NCBI GenBank assembly: GCA_019058445.1
Contig: JAHPZA010000004.1
Coordinates: 256,001-320,000, forward strand
DNA length: 64,000 nucleotides
Direction: 5' to 3'
Source: Promethearchaeota archaeon
GTDB lineage: Archaea; Asgardarchaeota; Lokiarchaeia; Sigyniarchaeales; SOKP01
The first letter of the stretch is position 1; the number at the start of each line of letters is the position of its first letter. The position numbers were made by a program, and so were the translations under genes. Below the pieces are notes generated by a model. That model saw nothing but the letters and a program-made list of their open reading frames with translations, was not told the DNA's origin and searched no databases. This document shows, in pieces, positions 2,765 through 64,000 of this stretch.

Positions 2765-2929
2765 ATGGCTACTTATGTGAAATGCACCATATGCGGTAAA
2801 ATGTTTGAATCTCGATTAGCAAAAGTTATGAAGTTAGGGGCCAATATCCTTATCGAAGATAACCACGAAGTATGCCCATATTGTCATCAAAGAACTGTAG
2901 TGAGTGAAAAAACCATCGTCAGTAAGTAA
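2765..2929 (+). CDS. 54-aa zinc-ribbon protein (not in ORF track)
   Basis: Manual translation MATYVKCTICGKMFESRLAKVMKLGANILIEDNHEVCPYCHQRTVVSEKTIVSK; two CxxC knuckles. Confidence 0.75.
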   Translation: MATYVKCTICGKMFESRLAKVMKLGANILIEDNHEVCPYCHQRTVVSEKTIVSK

Positions 2930-2950
2930 GCTTCTAAAAAATAAAAAGAT

Positions 2951-3259
2951 TTAAAGTTTTCTATCCGAAATCGATTTATAATCTCTTCTTTTTGTTTTAA
3001 ACGGCTTTTCTGGTCGATTAAAAAAGCACTCTGGACAGTATGGAGAGAGTATGGGATCTTTCCATAGTTCCAGTGCTCTTGTGGTGGTTAGGGAGGGATG
3101 ATTTCTACAGAAATCCTGGAAGGTTAGCACATTACCACAATCAAAGCATTGTCTCGCAGGGATATTTTCATTGTTCACCACTGTTGGTATGAGAGGGATT
3201 TTATGAAGATATCCCTTTACAATAATGTACTCATGAACGTCTTTATTACTATCTTGCAT
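2951..3259 (-). CDS. Small zinc-finger protein (CFDC...CPEC)
   Basis: Two CxxC motifs in 102 aa. Confidence 0.7.
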   Translation of the reverse strand: MQDSNKDVHEYIIVKGYLHKIPLIPTVVNNENIPARQCFDCGNVLTFQDFCRNHPSLTTTRALELWKDPILSPYCPECFFNRPEKPFKTKRRDYKSISDRKL

Positions 3260-3433
3260 GAATCTATGCGAGAGAATTTTAGGTTTTAAGATTCAACAGA
3301 CTCTTAAATTTTAAGTTTTCTTCTTATTCCTTCATGAATATTTGTTTTTTTGGTGGTTGCTTTATTTTTTCTTTTTAAACTTTCAATAAAATTTATACTT
3401 TAAAAAGTAATAGTCTTTAGAGAGAGATTTTCT

Positions 3434-3973
3434 TTGAGTGTAAAACGGGTAAAAAGGGATTTGAGTATAAAAAGAGAAGTTTGGAAAGAATTACACGAAT
3501 TAACGGATTTACAAAAACAAACGACAGAGCAGACTCTTATGCTTTTAACGGAAACCAAGCAGTATCTTGACTTCGAGGCAAATCATGGATTAGATGAGAA
3601 ATCTTATAGAGAGCGATTAAAAATCCTTATTAATATGGGGATTATCTATTACTATGCTTTGTATGAAGGATTCACGAGGTTTGTTTTTAAAAAGATGAGA
3701 GCTTATGAATTAGACATTTCCGAAGATAGAGTTAATGATAGAGATTTTACACTTCACAAAATAATTACATATATGAAGTCCCGGTACAAGATTTATTTAG
3801 AGGAGGAGATGTTCAGTGTTATAATAAAGCTAAAAGAGGCTCGACATGATATTGCCCATGGAGTGGGAGATGCGAAACCGGATTTTGACATTATTCTTAT
3901 ATGCCATTCGCAGATCGTGGAATATTTTGACTTTATCCTGCATGAAATGGCTAAAATTTTGAATTTTATTTAA
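3434..3973 (+). CDS. HEPN-like domain protein
   Basis: Helical protein with YALYEG segment and R-x4-H motif (ARHDIAHG). Confidence 0.6.
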   Translation: MSVKRVKRDLSIKREVWKELHELTDLQKQTTEQTLMLLTETKQYLDFEANHGLDEKSYRERLKILINMGIIYYYALYEGFTRFVFKKMRAYELDISEDRVNDRDFTLHKIITYMKSRYKIYLEEEMFSVIIKLKEARHDIAHGVGDAKPDFDIILICHSQIVEYFDFILHEMAKILNFI

Positions 3974-4067
3974 TGTAATAGAAAAGAATGCGATTTCAGT
4001 TTGATTTATAGAACAATTTAGAGCTACTATAAATAATCGAGGTTTAGAAACTAGAGAGTTTATTAAA

Positions 4068-14780: not shown

Positions 14781-15794
14781 ATGTCTAAACAAATAAAAGG
14801 AATTATAGTTTCACGATTAATTGTAATGATTTCAATCATATTAGTCCCAATAGCAATATTTCTCATCTTCAACTTAGTGGAATTTAGTTTATGGTTTTCA
14901 GATGATCCGGCGTTAAATTTTTGGATTTTAAATGTATTATGTCCGTTAGTATTTAGCGTTTCTTGGTTGTTCTTTTTAATATTATTTGCCAATAGGTTCG
15001 CAGCCACGATTGAGGCTATGGATAAAACAGTGGGAGTTGTACCCTTAAGATTGAGATTTTTTTTCGGACTAAATGCTTTATTCATTTTATTTATTTTTGT
15101 CTTTCCATTAATTACACCAATTGTCTCAATTTTAAGTTTTGCTTCAATGGCGTGGAGATTAACAACCTTTAGAAAAGAAAGCTGGGATGATTCTGAAATC
15201 TCTTTCGGGACTAAATTTCTAATGATTCTTTTCTCAATATTGCCTGTGTTCTGTACCATTGTTATTCTTCCTCAATATATATTACTCTCCATCTTCTTAT
15301 GGGAAAATATCTGGATGCCGTTATTACCAATTATTTTCATTATTTCGGTGTGCTTATGTACGGCATTAGCGATTGGATCATTATTTTATTTAGTGGCAAA
15401 TAAGGGAGTTAGTGAATATGAACAAATTTTCGTTGACACAAGCACTCCAAAATATGTATGGAACATTAGAATTTTAGAGATATTCTTATTCCTGTTTTTC
15501 TTATTCTTAGCATTCGGAAATTTTGCTCTGATTGATTTTTTCTACTATTTAGGATTTGTAATTGTGGCGTTTGTTGCTATTGTTAATTTTATTAATGGGA
15601 AAAGAAGAGATGTAAGTTTTAAGAGCCATTTTCTAGGATATCTCCTTGCAGCTGTATTTATGGGGTCAAATTTTCTTATTTTCAATGCGGACTTAGCATT
15701 AATTATTCAAGAAGTAAGTTTAATCACTTCTGCTATTGTGTTTATCCTTATATTTTTCTATACATTCTTCCGCTTTGACGAATCAGAAATTTAA
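14781..15794 (+). CDS. Polytopic membrane protein
   Basis: 337 aa, mostly TM helices. Confidence 0.75.
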   Translation: MSKQIKGIIVSRLIVMISIILVPIAIFLIFNLVEFSLWFSDDPALNFWILNVLCPLVFSVSWLFFLILFANRFAATIEAMDKTVGVVPLRLRFFFGLNALFILFIFVFPLITPIVSILSFASMAWRLTTFRKESWDDSEISFGTKFLMILFSILPVFCTIVILPQYILLSIFLWENIWMPLLPIIFIISVCLCTALAIGSLFYLVANKGVSEYEQIFVDTSTPKYVWNIRILEIFLFLFFLFLAFGNFALIDFFYYLGFVIVAFVAIVNFINGKRRDVSFKSHFLGYLLAAVFMGSNFLIFNADLALIIQEVSLITSAIVFILIFFYTFFRFDESEI

Positions 15795-56067: not shown

Positions 56068-56628
56068 TTACTCAATTTTAAAATCTACTCCATATTGGCT
56101 TAAGATACGTTGGATAAGTCTTAAAAAAGCTTTATCCACATTTTCGCCATTTAAAGCACTTGTCTCTAAAAAATCAATTGCATTGATTTTATTTGCCAAT
56201 CTTTCACCTTCTTCATATTTTACTACTCTATTTTCTTTTAAATCTATTTTATTTCCTAATAAGAGGAAATCACATTTTTTTTTGATATTATTTAGAAGAT
56301 CCTTAAGCCATTTTGATTCAATATTTATAAACGTATCGTGTCTTGTAATATCATATACAAATAACACTCCAGAACACCCCTCATAATATGCTTGTCGACA
56401 ATTTTCATACTTTTCTTGTCCCGCGATATCCCAAAAGATCAAACGAATTAAAGATCCAATCTGTTCAATTTCAATATCTTTCGATATAATATTTACTCCA
56501 AGCGTTGGTCGATAGTCTTCTAAAAAGGTATGTTCAATATATTGATTAATTAATGAAGTTTTTCCTACTGCCATGTCCCCTAAAACTAATATCTTAAATG
56601 TCCATTGCTTTATTTGACCGTTCGCCAT
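56068..56628 (-). CDS. Rab-like small GTPase
   Basis: GDMAVGKT, WDIAGQ, NKID, TSAL. Confidence 0.95.
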   Translation of the reverse strand: MANGQIKQWTFKILVLGDMAVGKTSLINQYIEHTFLEDYRPTLGVNIISKDIEIEQIGSLIRLIFWDIAGQEKYENCRQAYYEGCSGVLFVYDITRHDTFINIESKWLKDLLNNIKKKCDFLLLGNKIDLKENRVVKYEEGERLANKINAIDFLETSALNGENVDKAFLRLIQRILSQYGVDFKIE

Positions 56629-56643
56629 AATTGTTTCTCCATT

Positions 56644-57072
56644 TTATAAATCTAATAAAGATAGATCAAACTGTGGATCATTCGCTCGAGTAATAGTTTG
56701 AGTTATTTCATAGACGTAAACTTCGGCAGTAACAGAAACTATACTTGGCTGACTTAAATGTCCTCCAATAATGCTATAATCTTCCTTACCGACTGATACA
56801 TGTAAATGAATTATTGGTTCATTATCTTTAAATGCAATATTGCCCATACAAGATATTAATTCTATATCTTCATCAAAAGTTTTAAAATTGTACTCTTTTG
56901 TTTCAATATCAAAATATCCAATTGTAAATTGTTTTAAAGCACCGATAACATTTAGGAGTCCTGATTTTATATTATGTTTCTTAATAAGTTCTTTAATGGC
57001 ATCAACAATATCTTCATTTGGTTCTATTTTTGCAACAATTACGCGCCCAACTGTTGTTTCTTTGCTTTTCAA
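56644..57072 (-). CDS. PPC/DUF296 domain protein
   Basis: IGAL, ELISCMGNI, HLH, GGHL. Confidence 0.9.
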   Translation of the reverse strand: MKSKETTVGRVIVAKIEPNEDIVDAIKELIKKHNIKSGLLNVIGALKQFTIGYFDIETKEYNFKTFDEDIELISCMGNIAFKDNEPIIHLHVSVGKEDYSIIGGHLSQPSIVSVTAEVYVYEITQTITRANDPQFDLSLLDL

Positions 57073-57275
57073 TGTTTTCCTCTTCTTATTTTTTCAAACA
57101 ATCTTATGGATTTAAAAATTAATAGAATATGTTAAATTGTTATATTCTTATACTTTTAAAATTATAGAATTTTTAAACCTTTTTATTCTTTTTTTTAGCT
57201 ATGATAATTAGTAAGGATGACTTACTTAATTGAGAAGTAATTATTCTCTTAAAAATTGAATCCTATTCAACATTT

Positions 57276-57815
57276 TTAATCATTTAATATAATTTGGTTA
57301 ATTAATTTTTGAAAAGCAAATTCAACATTTTCTCCATATTTAGCACTAGTTTCAATAAACTCAATTGCGTTCATCTTATCGGCTAATTGTTTTCCTCTAT
57401 CTTTATCAACATATCTCAAATCTTTCAAATCTTTCTTGTTTCCAATTAAAATGACTTCAGATTCTCTTTTTCCAAATTTTTGAAAGTCATGCACCCATTT
57501 ATTGTAGATATGGTCAAAAGTTGATTCTCGCGTAATATCGTAGACAAATAAGGCTCCAGAACATCCCTGAAAAAACATTTTTCGTGATAAATCATAAATT
57601 TTTTGGCCTGCTATATCCCAAATAATTAATTTGGCAGAAGTATTTGGATTATCCATCTTTATTTCTTTAGCTATGATATTTGCTCCTAATGTTGGTCGAT
57701 AATCTGTTTCAAACGTATGATCGACATATTGATTAATTAAAGATGTTTTTCCAACTGCTGGGTCTCCCAATAAAACAAGCTTTAAAATGTATTCATGTAC
57801 ATTTTCATCTGACAT
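57276..57815 (-). CDS. Rab-like small GTPase
   Basis: GDPAVGKT, WDIAGQ, NKKD, TSAK. Confidence 0.95.
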   Translation of the reverse strand: MSDENVHEYILKLVLLGDPAVGKTSLINQYVDHTFETDYRPTLGANIIAKEIKMDNPNTSAKLIIWDIAGQKIYDLSRKMFFQGCSGALFVYDITRESTFDHIYNKWVHDFQKFGKRESEVILIGNKKDLKDLRYVDKDRGKQLADKMNAIEFIETSAKYGENVEFAFQKLINQIILND

Positions 57816-60919: not shown

Positions 60920-62338
60920 TTATTTGTCCAAAAGTCCAAATTTTTTGAGTCCTTGCCTCATATCGGGTTGAAACGGTCCTGGAGTCCCCTCTATAAACGC
61001 TTCAATAATATCTTGATTATTGACTTCGTGTGACTCTCTTTTTTTCGCTTTTTCTTCCGCGAGTGATGTTATTGCCATTCTTGCCATTGATTGAAATTGA
61101 GGGGGAGATAATTTGATTAATTCATTGAAGATTTTTTCAGTTTCAGGATCCCATATCAGCTCTGATTTTCTCTCTTTCTTGGTTTTCGTTGAATCTACTC
61201 CAAATTCACGGCTTGTCACAATATCATTTAGATAATCCTTTAAAGATTCAACATATCGGGTAGATTCTTCTTCATCAAGGAATACTGCCTTTTTTGCCCA
61301 ATCCTCGCAATAGGTACATTCACCGCACATAGCCACACAATTTTGTTTTTTAAAGAAATCTATAAATCCGTCAAGTTTCGTATTGTCTATAATTAGTTTA
61401 GATTTAGATTCTTTTCCTAGGGTTTCACTTATTTTTGCATTAGGATCCTTTTGTTCCAGACCTCCGAATGACATCGAAAATCCTTGAATAATATCCACAA
61501 GATTTCCATGATATTCACGGGAAGCAAATGCTTTTACTGCTCTGACAATCCATTCAGTTGACATGCGTCGCCCTGCGATTTTAAAATCATCAATTCCAAT
61601 CGCTTCATAGTGGGAAAGGTCTTCAGGTCGAATCCATCGTGCTTTTATAACTTCCGTTGGATCAGAAAATTTAATAATACTACAATTTAAAATGCATGTA
61701 TCGATATAATTACGCTCGAATTGTTGATGGGTCTGAGAGGCATGTCCAAGTATATTATAATGATAATATCTAAATGGACATTGATAAAGACACCCATCAG
61801 TTAAAAGTAACACGATTTTGCAATTAGTTGCTTCCTTGATTTTTTCTAAAGTCTGGAAATCTCGGTTTATCATTACATCAGGAGTTATCTCATCCGCGCC
61901 TAGCATTTCATATAATTTTGCCCGATTCACACTATTAATATGGGCAATAGTAGATACACGAATTTTTAGTTTAGGAAATTGTTCCTTAATAAGCTGTATT
62001 AGAAAAGGAATAGTAACAATTACATTATCAGTTCCTATATCACTAATCCATTGAATGTATTTAAGCAGTTCTTTATGATATTGCGAATTATATTCCATAT
62101 TATTCATGCAAGGGGCATTCAATAAATAAGAAAATTCCATTTTATTCTCATGAACCTTTTTGATGTACTCAGCAATTTGCTCTTCTTGTATTGTTTTTAA
62201 TAAGAATGAGGGACGACCTCCTCCGACAAGTGTGTGATCAGCAACCCCATACAAACTAGCAACCGGATATTTTGCCAGTTCTTCTATAAGGTTAAAATCC
62301 CAATTCGTTGCTACATGAAATTGAATTTTTTTCACCAT
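60920..62338 (-). CDS. Peptidase U32-family Fe-S protein with C-terminal PCP_red/DUF2621-like domain
   Basis: GGGR, YLLNAPC, VSTIAHI, INRDF, GCLYQC...CILNC, WIRPEDL, FKIAGR; extra CVAMCGECTYC. Confidence 0.88.
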   Translation of the reverse strand: MVKKIQFHVATNWDFNLIEELAKYPVASLYGVADHTLVGGGRPSFLLKTIQEEQIAEYIKKVHENKMEFSYLLNAPCMNNMEYNSQYHKELLKYIQWISDIGTDNVIVTIPFLIQLIKEQFPKLKIRVSTIAHINSVNRAKLYEMLGADEITPDVMINRDFQTLEKIKEATNCKIVLLLTDGCLYQCPFRYYHYNILGHASQTHQQFERNYIDTCILNCSIIKFSDPTEVIKARWIRPEDLSHYEAIGIDDFKIAGRRMSTEWIVRAVKAFASREYHGNLVDIIQGFSMSFGGLEQKDPNAKISETLGKESKSKLIIDNTKLDGFIDFFKKQNCVAMCGECTYCEDWAKKAVFLDEEESTRYVESLKDYLNDIVTSREFGVDSTKTKKERKSELIWDPETEKIFNELIKLSPPQFQSMARMAITSLAEEKAKKRESHEVNNQDIIEAFIEGTPGPFQPDMRQGLKKFGLLDK

Positions 62339-62371
62339 TTTATATGTTTAAAATATTTCTCAATTTTATTA

Positions 62372-62758
62372 CTACTTAACTGCTTTAGCATGGGCTTTTG
62401 CATTAAGTGGTAATAACGGAGCGCATGCCATGAGTTTAGTGACGTCCCCTTCTACAACATATGTTCCGGACATTGTTGCTTGAATTGGATCAGACTCACC
62501 TGAATTTACTTTTTTAATTGTCTCAAAATCCGTTTTGTGGATTACCTTTGGAGCATCTGGTCCTTTATATTCACCCATTCCCCAATTCATCTTGTCATTT
62601 TCAATATATTGCCAATAATTCATCTCTGGCTTGTCAGTTATGATATATTGAAAAATTAACGGAGCTATCGGCTCTAATAACTGCGTTAAATCAGGTAACT
62701 CATTATAAGCTTTCATGAAGCGTGTTAAATACGCTTTCCATTCTTCATTTTCATCCAT
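62372..62758 (-). CDS. SCP2 sterol/lipid-binding domain protein
   Basis: TDFETIKKVNSGESDPIQATMSGTYVVEGD SCP2 signature. Confidence 0.85.
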   Translation of the reverse strand: MDENEEWKAYLTRFMKAYNELPDLTQLLEPIAPLIFQYIITDKPEMNYWQYIENDKMNWGMGEYKGPDAPKVIHKTDFETIKKVNSGESDPIQATMSGTYVVEGDVTKLMACAPLLPLNAKAHAKAVK

Positions 62759-62858
62759 TTTTATTCAATCTTTTTAGTTTTTTAATTTTTTCGAATTTTT
62801 TTTAAAATTTAATCAAATTTGATATTTCTTTAACCTTCAGGGATAAAATTCCTTACTA

Positions 62859-64000
62859 TCATTTATAAGAATCAATTCCCGCTTTAGCACCCATAAACAA
62901 GAAATCTACCATAGTCCCATTATAGTCATTTTCGATTTTATAATAGAGACCGTTGGGCGTGAAAGTAATGCCATAGATAAACTTTCTCATTTCACTCTGG
63001 AATGGGGATTCTTCAACATATTTTTTTATGAGGGGATGAAAGTGCGTCGGAACTTGTTTTGAATCATGACATGCTATACCAAAACATAGGCGCTCAATTC
63101 TAGACGAATCCCAGCTAAAAGTATAATTAAGATGGGCAGCTTGACAACATCTTTCCATTATTTCTTCAGATGCAATCTCAAAACCTATGTCTTTCACGAG
63201 CGCTTTGCATTTCTCAGGTGTCGCTGTGGAAGGATCTCTTAGCATAAAATAGATATTTGTTGTCTCATGTAAAAAATCAAAGGCAAAAACAGCAAAAACA
63301 AATAATTTATGTTTTTTGAAGTATTCTTCATAGGTTTTCATGCTTTGTGGAATATATTTCATTGAAAAAATGGAATCAATAGGACCGGGGACGATAAACG
63401 GCCAGATCTTTGATAATCCATTCCTTGCATCCAAATCAACACCATAACCCAAAATATCAAACGTATCAAATACTTCTAATATCATTTTGTGAATAGCGTG
63501 CCCATTTTTTTCGATTAACCCTTCATTTATAGCAACTGTATATGGATCTGGATCATGGACTATCATCATTTCCACATATCTGACAGAGACATCCCTATTT
63601 TCAACTGGCTTAGTAGTAGTTCTAATTGATACTGGAGAACCTGAGAAAAATTTCTTATAGGCATTGAGTCCCTTCCAAATAGCATCTTCATTACATTTTA
63701 CTCCTGTAAGTACCCCAAGCTTTAAAATATCTTTTACCATTTGATTTAGATCATTATTACATTTAAAATCAGATTTGATTTTGGGTAAATATAGTTCATA
63801 TTCGACACCTAAAGCTAATAAATCTTCTATCATAGTTGGTTGAAAAGCGGGGGGTGTCACTTCAAACAAAGCGATTATAAGATCTATTTCTGCGACATTT
63901 TTCCCATTTCTTTCTATACATTTCTTTTCTGCGTTCTCAAAGAGCATAGGTTTTATGACAGGTCTTACCATTTCTGGAATTTTTAAAACTAAGTTATTAT
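62859..64000 (-). CDS. ABBA aromatic prenyltransferase (NphB/CloQ-like) with N-terminal PCP_red/DUF2621-like domain; 5' end beyond window
   Basis: YGVDLD..GLSKIW, FDF...TNIYF, YTFSWDS.RIERLCF, IYGITFTP..YYKIE.DY; frame open to base 64000. Confidence 0.82.
   Translation of the reverse strand, partial: NNLVLKIPEMVRPVIKPMLFENAEKKCIERNGKNVAEIDLIIALFEVTPPAFQPTMIEDLLALGVEYELYLPKIKSDFKCNNDLNQMVKDILKLGVLTGVKCNEDAIWKGLNAYKKFFSGSPVSIRTTTKPVENRDVSVRYVEMMIVHDPDPYTVAINEGLIEKNGHAIHKMILEVFDTFDILGYGVDLDARNGLSKIWPFIVPGPIDSIFSMKYIPQSMKTYEEYFKKHKLFVFAVFAFDFLHETTNIYFMLRDPSTATPEKCKALVKDIGFEIASEEIMERCCQAAHLNYTFSWDSSRIERLCFGIACHDSKQVPTHFHPLIKKYVEESPFQSEMRKFIYGITFTPNGLYYKIENDYNGTMVDFLFMGAKAGIDSYK

Follow-up and report, generated by a model that had tools for sequence, protein, structure and literature searches.

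The last three kilobases of a 64,000-nucleotide stretch of a Promethearchaeota archaeon genome (contig JAHPZA010000004.1, positions 256,001-320,000, or G000:C4:256001-320000 in our numbering; hereafter the window) carry three genes on the minus strand, encoding a U32-family protein, a free-standing SCP2 lipid-binding protein and an aromatic prenyltransferase of the ABBA (PTase_Orf2) type. These genes had been placed by an earlier note made from the letters of the window, and an open reading frame (ORF) scan combined with a Pfam scan confirmed the placement. The element under study is a small domain, below called the tag, which is found both at the C-terminus of the U32 protein and at the N-terminus of the prenyltransferase. 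The contig was also read beyond the window end; the true start of the prenyltransferase is at window position 64031, 31 nucleotides past the end (ORF 2859-4031, minus strand, of locus L005), and its residues 1-10 and start codon thus occupy 64001-64031 outside the window.

The earlier note had regarded the U32 tail and the prenyltransferase head as one and the same domain of about 70 amino acids. BLASTP aligned the two segments without gaps, with 20 of 65 residues identical (31%; 32.7 bits, E 2e-8), and the pairwise statistics that the note had proposed as a check were equally clear, as judged by a Smith-Waterman score of 110 compared with 25.1 ± 4.6 for 2000 shuffles (z 18.5), none of which attained the observed score. 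With regard to its extent, the ungapped shared block stood, but the true start of the domain lies 11 residues further upstream, giving a length of about 76-80 amino acids. This start is marked by a Trp that is invariant in all five copies of the genome and opens a W-x-P-E-type sequence. The U32 copy is an outlier, having 25-31% identity to the other three, which share 41-45% among themselves. To define the conserved positions, we aligned the five local copies with 48 free-standing database relatives (53 members) and looked for a motif consisting of the N-terminal Trp, Pro-x3-Arg at the start of helix 2, Ala in helix 2 and Thr-Pro-x2-Phe between helices 3 and 4. W3, P19, A34 and P60 were invariant or nearly so in the five local copies and in the 53-member alignment, and R23 occurred in at least 90% of the 53 members, being replaced by Gln in the U32 copy. 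The conserved positions thus comprise Trp, two Pro, Ala and mostly Arg, and since there is no Cys or His among them, a metal site in the tag is unlikely.

A profile built from the five copies matched the 4.6-Mb genome at six places and no others, which lie together in a stretch of about 15 kb, and each local copy was recovered in this whole-genome search at E values from 1e-33 to 1e-41. In addition to the U32 protein and the prenyltransferase, two tandem radical S-adenosylmethionine (radical-SAM)/SPASM enzymes just beyond the window carry the tag at their N-termini. The note was therefore right about the two enzymes it named, but its count of two was too low, as at least four enzymes are tagged here. 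The order of transcription is membrane protein, SPASM-2 (tagged), SPASM-1 (tagged), B12 radical-SAM, prenyltransferase (tagged), SCP2 and U32 (tagged), and beside the operon lie more B12 radical-SAM genes, a CDP-alcohol phosphatidyltransferase and a GT2 glycosyltransferase. The two remaining matches, a 75-amino-acid ORF and a 40-residue fragment, lie where the head of the operon has been duplicated in inverted orientation and has diverged, together with a second, 68% identical copy of the membrane-protein gene; both are probably what is left of the start of a SPASM gene that was duplicated. The membrane protein heads every version of the operon that we found, but only its first ~110 residues, the transmembrane part, are conserved; the remainder is variable, with many Asn, Lys and Tyr residues. 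This protein may be a membrane anchor or a partner of the tagged enzymes. The coordinates of these and the other features are collected in Table 1.

Table 1. Location of the tag copies, their host genes and other features discussed in the text (window positions unless a locus or contig is given)
Feature	Location	Strand	Size, matches and remarks
U32-family gene	60920..62338	-	divergent; 472 amino acids; PF01136 E 3.8e-13, profile positions 2-65 only
Tag copy, U32 C-terminus	60932..61168	-	U32 residues 391-469; hmmsearch envelope 391-469; profile match E 1.1e-35
Second Cys motif of U32	61307-61339	-	U32 residues 334-344
Free-standing SCP2 lipid-binding protein	62372..62758	-	128 amino acids; PF02036 23.0 bits, cut-off 21.3
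ABBA (PTase_Orf2) aromatic prenyltransferase	62859..64000, cut by window end	-	390 amino acids; PF11468 E 9.6e-50, residues 95-378
Tag copy, prenyltransferase N-terminus	63786..64000	-	residues 11-82 within the window; envelope 1-82; profile match E 1.3e-38
Two tandem radical-SAM/SPASM enzymes, N-terminal tag	L005 5538-6998 and 6970-8346	-	just beyond the window
Free-standing tag ORF	L005 13604-13831	+	75 amino acids; profile match
Tag fragment	L005 about 14921-15040	+	40 residues; profile match
Membrane protein heading the operon	L005 8371-9153 (-), 14104-14886 (+); L024 4613-5305; L025 4286-5017; L026 12197-12943		~230-260 amino acids
U32-tag-SCP2 protein	L024 12047-14098 (+); L025 14923-16992 (+); L026 6255-8261 (-)		~685 amino acids; preceded by a 383-amino-acid untagged U32-like paralogue
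Two SPASM enzymes with C-terminal SCP2 in place of the N-terminal tag, G030	L025 9397-10974, 11006-12514	+	50-54% identity to window SCP2
Two tandem tagged ABBA prenyltransferases, Myxococcota	L029 9971-12512, JAFGQN010000134.1	+	25-30% identical to the archaeal one
Canonical U32 genes elsewhere in the genome	G000:C6:581885-583291; G000:C10:105290-105970		PF01136, 261-269 bits
Two small Ras/Rab-like GTPase genes flanking a 142-amino-acid ORF	56068-57815	-	186 and 179 amino acids; assigned by motifs

The pair of small Ras/Rab-like GTPase genes upstream of the cluster is typical of Asgard genomes and is unrelated to the tag.

The resemblance to the helical PCP_red and DUF2621 domains suggested by the note holds at the level of the family and is weak for the copies of the window themselves. 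The window copies scored 24.7-26.5 bits against DUF2621 (PF11084), below the cut-off of 27.7 (26.5 for the U32 copy), and the prenyltransferase head alone gave no Pfam match to DUF2621 or PCP_red. However, 42 of the 53 aligned members matched DUF2621 at E ≤ 0.01 (best 3.4e-12) and 20 matched PCP_red (PF08369; best 1.2e-7), and the tag is therefore placed as a divergent branch of the PCP_red/DUF2621 superfamily, to which the C-terminal domain of BchB/ChlB (PDB 2kru) and Nostoc Asr4154 (2l09) also belong. It differs from these in its hosts: PCP_red and DUF2621 have been defined on nitrogenase-like or membrane-anchored proteins, whereas the tag is carried by U32, ABBA prenyltransferase, radical-SAM/SPASM and SCP2 proteins. 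AlphaFold2 modelled the U32 copy as four helices with a short strand bridge of two residues (predicted local distance difference test, pLDDT, 88.7). A Foldseek search with this model returned nothing at E ≤ 0.001, though Asr4154 (probability 0.98) and the BchB PCP_red domain (probability 0.72) are on the list above that threshold; the predicted four-helix arrangement resembles the C-terminal lid domains of AAA+ proteins (the Mg-chelatase subunit BchI, 1g8p, as well as MCM and Rpt3). Searches of the PDB with sequence profiles gave no significant match, the best being histone-fold proteins (E 0.013-0.19), with 2kru and 2l09 at E 0.6-0.8. The linkers between the tag and its hosts are variable and of low complexity, and the one submitted to AlphaFold2 was predicted to be disordered. 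The U32 tail and the prenyltransferase head are two copies of a single ~78-amino-acid domain, which is predicted to fold on its own into four helices and is tied to its hosts by flexible linkers.

Next, we examined with which proteins the tag is combined. A search of 1.84 billion representative proteins (E ≤ 0.001) revealed a small family of 193 matching representatives, some of them TPR false positives. Matches of 850-1600 amino acids with 4-9 matched stretches had looked like scaffolds built from tags, but Pfam assigned them to TPR_10/TPR_12 and they were discarded as false positives of a helical profile. The true family has ~170 members. Among the best 150 of the 193 matches, the partners were U32 (23), PTase_Orf2 (18), radical-SAM/SPASM (11) and SCP2 (3), and about 50 were free-standing proteins of 75-105 amino acids. 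Rarer partners include a class I SAM methyltransferase, the C-terminal domain of HpaB hydroxylase, a PNPOx-like flavoprotein, a VOC/glyoxalase protein, LuxC together with radical-SAM/SPASM, a nitrogenase-like protein of the BchB type and a thioredoxin-like 2Fe-2S ferredoxin; the set is largely a toolkit for modifying aromatic or lipid substrates. The position of the tag is not fixed, being N- or C-terminal on the prenyltransferase (P0005; C-terminal in G294) and C-terminal or internal in U32, and natural fusions tie it to the lipid carrier in the arrangements U32-tag-SCP2, SCP2-tag and U32-tag-SCP2-SCP2-tag.

The close relatives are metagenome-assembled genomes (MAGs) of Candidatus Lokiarchaeota, with one SCP2-tag fusion in a Hodarchaeota MAG. 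Across the 301 genomes of the phylum, the tag was present in 26, always in clustered copies, and 22 of these 26 belong to the window's own family (68 genomes), in which it is patchy within genera. Of the 301 genomes, 19 were found to have PTase_Orf2, and each of these 19 is among the 26 with a tag; every PTase_Orf2 ORF had an in-frame tag match except a truncated one of 339 amino acids in G195, which retains a tag fragment only. Outside the archaea, free-standing relatives of 85 amino acids lie directly upstream of a transporter gene of the MFS/BT1 family in four of seven bacterial loci (metagenome loci L041, L043, L046 and L049); at L050, the free-standing relative adjoins a chorismate-binding enzyme. 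The tandem tagged prenyltransferases of a Myxococcota MAG (L029) have a ceramidase-family gene, a sigma-54 activator and an OPT transporter as unrelated neighbours. A search of the literature retrieved nothing on the tag domain, nor on ABBA prenyltransferases or clusters of U32, SCP2 and radical-SAM genes in Asgard archaea. It should be underlined that the superfamily as such is known; what is not described in the literature searched is that one of its branches serves as a tag shared by U32, ABBA prenyltransferase, SPASM and SCP2 proteins.

The cluster recurs in related genomes with additional genes. Two of them (G113 and G030) contain the same operon plus two U32 paralogues, one of 383 amino acids without a tag and one of ~685 amino acids with the tag in the middle of the protein. 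The window SCP2 is 79-80% identical to the C-terminus of the 687- and 698-amino-acid ORFs of these genomes, and since this C-terminus is orthologous to it, the long paralogue has the architecture U32 - tag - linker - SCP2, in which the linker between tag and SCP2 is 35-50 residues long, variable and of low complexity. A search of the window's genome found no such pair and a single cluster-type U32, so that its SCP2 stands alone, either because genes were deleted or because the ancestral protein was not fused. In G030, moreover, two SPASM enzymes have an SCP2 domain at the C-terminus in place of the tag at the N-terminus (Table 1).

To follow the history of the copies, a quick tree of 147 tag sequences was made, which was only partly resolved. 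The Asgard copies group by partner across genomes, with support values (SH-like approximate likelihood ratio test) of 99 for prenyltransferase, 96 for SPASM-1, 97 for SPASM-2, 99 for C-terminal U32 and 100 for internal U32, and the tree gave no sign of homogenisation of copies within genomes. When the window's cluster was compared with those of G113 and of G030 contig C15, the tag and the catalytic part of U32, prenyltransferase and SPASM-1 were conserved to within a few points of each other (about 70-83%), while the tag of SPASM-2 was less conserved than its catalytic part (77-78% versus 89%). By these sequence comparisons, the fusions are old and under selection. The further claim of the note, that the genes are functionally coupled, is supported by the location of all six copies in one cluster, by the recurrence of this cluster, with the same enzymes tagged, in relatives, and by the presence of the tag in each genome of the phylum in which PTase_Orf2 was found.

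The composition of the cluster invites comparison with ubiquinone synthesis, in which the SCP2 proteins UbiJ and UbiT bind quinone intermediates and organise the Ubi enzymes, and the U32 proteins UbiU and UbiV are Fe-S hydroxylases of the O2-independent route with the cysteine spacing C-x6-C-x15-C-x3/4-C (PMC6747719). In the window U32, Cys77, Cys183, Cys187 and Cys219 are conserved in 15-16 of 17 relatives, a set of four that would suit a 4Fe-4S cluster. A second motif, C-x3-C-x2-C-x2-C (residues 334-344), is present in 15 of the 17 relatives and lies between the U32 core and the tag, the order being core, second motif, a linker of ~46 amino acids and tag; its sequence suggests an extra Fe-S cluster, which is not described for UbiU or UbiV. 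The likeness to the Ubi system thus consists in a four-cysteine U32 protein next to or fused with an SCP2 domain, in the pair of U32 paralogues (383 and ~685 amino acids) of the relatives, which recalls UbiU and UbiV, and in an accessory protein thought to hold a greasy intermediate for several enzymes. In contrast, the cysteine spacing here is C-x105-C-x3-C-x31-C plus the extra motif, prenylation is assigned to a soluble ABBA enzyme and not to a UbiA protein, and the Ubi proteins lack the tag. Moreover, the window's genome combines SCP2 with one cluster-type U32 and not with two paralogues. Two canonical U32 genes are present elsewhere in this genome (Table 1), and one of the two has a weak SCP2-like ORF (E 4.9e-4) as its neighbour, which makes a second pairing of U32 and SCP2 outside the cluster.

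The note had read the shared domain as a docking module. In the Asgard clusters the tag is indeed found on two or more different pathway enzymes wherever it is present, and docking of the tagged enzymes with one another is a plausible and reasonable reading there. Our own preference, held tentatively and with slightly less than even confidence, is the broader one that the tag is a recruitment or hand-off adaptor in the Asgard cluster; we favour it because the tag is confined to one cluster, is free in its position, sits on disordered tethers and has repeatedly been fused to SCP2, and because the Ubi system offers a precedent. On this proposal, the tag would lie outside any active site and would bring each host enzyme to something shared, for which an SCP2-held greasy intermediate, or SCP2 itself, is the best candidate, with a common scaffold or other copies of the tag as alternative targets. 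Prenylation, O2-independent hydroxylation and radical modification could then run successively on one sequestered lipophilic aromatic substrate, by analogy with the arrangement proposed for UbiJ and UbiT in ubiquinone synthesis. A more specific form, which is possible but doubtful, is that the tag is a portable pathway address label of ~78 amino acids that recruits enzymes as unrelated as the soluble prenyltransferase, a putative U32 hydroxylase and the radical-SAM enzymes, and in other genomes methyltransferases and flavin hydroxylases, to an SCP2 carrier, thereby forming an archaeal metabolon that makes a prenylated aromatic lipid without oxygen.

Several observations weigh against recruitment or docking or are neutral. 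In an AlphaFold2 model of a natural tag-linker-SCP2 segment, both domains were folded (pLDDT 80-90) and joined by a linker with pLDDT below 50, and the low predicted template modelling score of 0.48 means that no fixed contact between tag and SCP2 is predicted; on transient binding, the model says nothing for or against. The net charges of the copies were compared for a hint of pairing, and no complementarity was found. SCP2 is not present in every variant of the cluster, as seen in L026. Bacteria do not show the distribution over different pathway enzymes that is seen in Asgard clusters: the Myxococcota MAG has only two copies, both on the tandem prenyltransferase paralogues, with no tagged U32 or radical-SAM protein anywhere in its 8.2 Mb, and of five further bacterial genomes that were searched, three, belonging to the same phylum, hold one copy only, carried by a VOC enzyme or a nitrogenase-like protein. 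With the tag on one enzyme type in these genomes, docking between different tagged enzymes is not the general or ancestral role of the family. The superfamily offers no guidance either, since to our knowledge no PCP_red or DUF2621 domain has an established function.

The single-enzyme hosts in bacteria count in favour of a different explanation, namely that the tag is a substrate cap or ligand-binding domain, which closes in cis or in trans over the active site, so helping its own enzyme to hold a shared hydrophobic substrate, aromatic or prenylated, and has no part in assembly. This would accord with the substrates of the partners, all of which are aromatic, lipophilic or of the tetrapyrrole type, with the transporter genes next to free-standing bacterial relatives, and with the founding member of the superfamily being the C-terminal domain of BchB. 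In that enzyme, C-terminal helices extend in trans from one BchB to the substrate held by the opposite half (PMC12022308), although the helix concerned (residues 398-420) was not demonstrated there to be the PCP_red domain itself. However, the tag is N-terminal in some prenyltransferases and C-terminal in others, and it is tethered by long disordered linkers, which would be unusual for a lid dependent on fixed geometry; the conserved residues (Trp, two Pro, Ala and Arg) look structural, with no pocket-like motif evident. On balance we consider a cap rather unlikely, but it is the alternative that survives best. Self-association, by which the tag would make its host dimeric or oligomeric and mixed complexes would arise in the Asgard cluster only incidentally, seems to us distinctly improbable.

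The presence of Fe-S redox enzymes among the hosts (U32, radical-SAM/SPASM and BchB-like proteins), together with fusions of the tag to a thioredoxin-like 2Fe-2S ferredoxin among the relatives (P0047, P0122 and P0127), raises the question of whether the tag binds a ferredoxin-type electron donor. This is very improbable, as several hosts, namely the prenyltransferase, SCP2, methyltransferase and VOC proteins, have no use for electrons and there is no ferredoxin gene in the cluster. In its distribution, the tag is most like a docking domain or a RiPP (ribosomally synthesised and post-translationally modified peptide) recognition element (RRE, PqqD-like), the latter being a single small domain that recurs on tailoring enzymes of different kinds within a cluster and can head radical-SAM/SPASM enzymes, as the tag does here; such enzymes and the adjacent B12 radical-SAM genes are both common in RiPP clusters. 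Nevertheless, that the cluster makes a modified peptide whose leader is recognised by the tag has only the slimmest chance of being true, because the predicted fold is an all-helical four-helix bundle and not a winged helix with a three-stranded sheet, there is no sequence relation to RREs and no PqqD match in Pfam scans of the tagged enzymes, a precursor peptide gene was looked for and not found in an operon so packed that it has no room for one (the sole non-enzyme being the membrane protein), and the SCP2, LuxC and PTase_Orf2-type partners suggest substrates that are small and lipophilic.

Returning to the adaptor proposal, one branch of the PCP_red/DUF2621 superfamily has been attached, in any position and on floppy linkers, to at least four unrelated enzymes of one conserved cluster and to SCP2, which provides a concrete hypothesis for the domain as a recruitment or hand-off module. 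If the address-label form were true, the role of the tag in the synthesis of lipophilic metabolites would match that of RRE domains for peptide natural products. The tag labels the enzymes of an oxygen-free prenyl-aromatic gene cluster not described before, and it is a practical marker: a search with it finds members of this O2-independent pathway in Lokiarchaeia (26 of the 301 Asgard genomes) and likewise related enzyme sets in bacteria. Classical quinones are not known from Asgard archaea. Should enzyme assembly prove to be the function of the tag, it would offer a simple and portable means of building metabolons, and would bear on how Asgard archaea handle greasy, redox-type metabolites.

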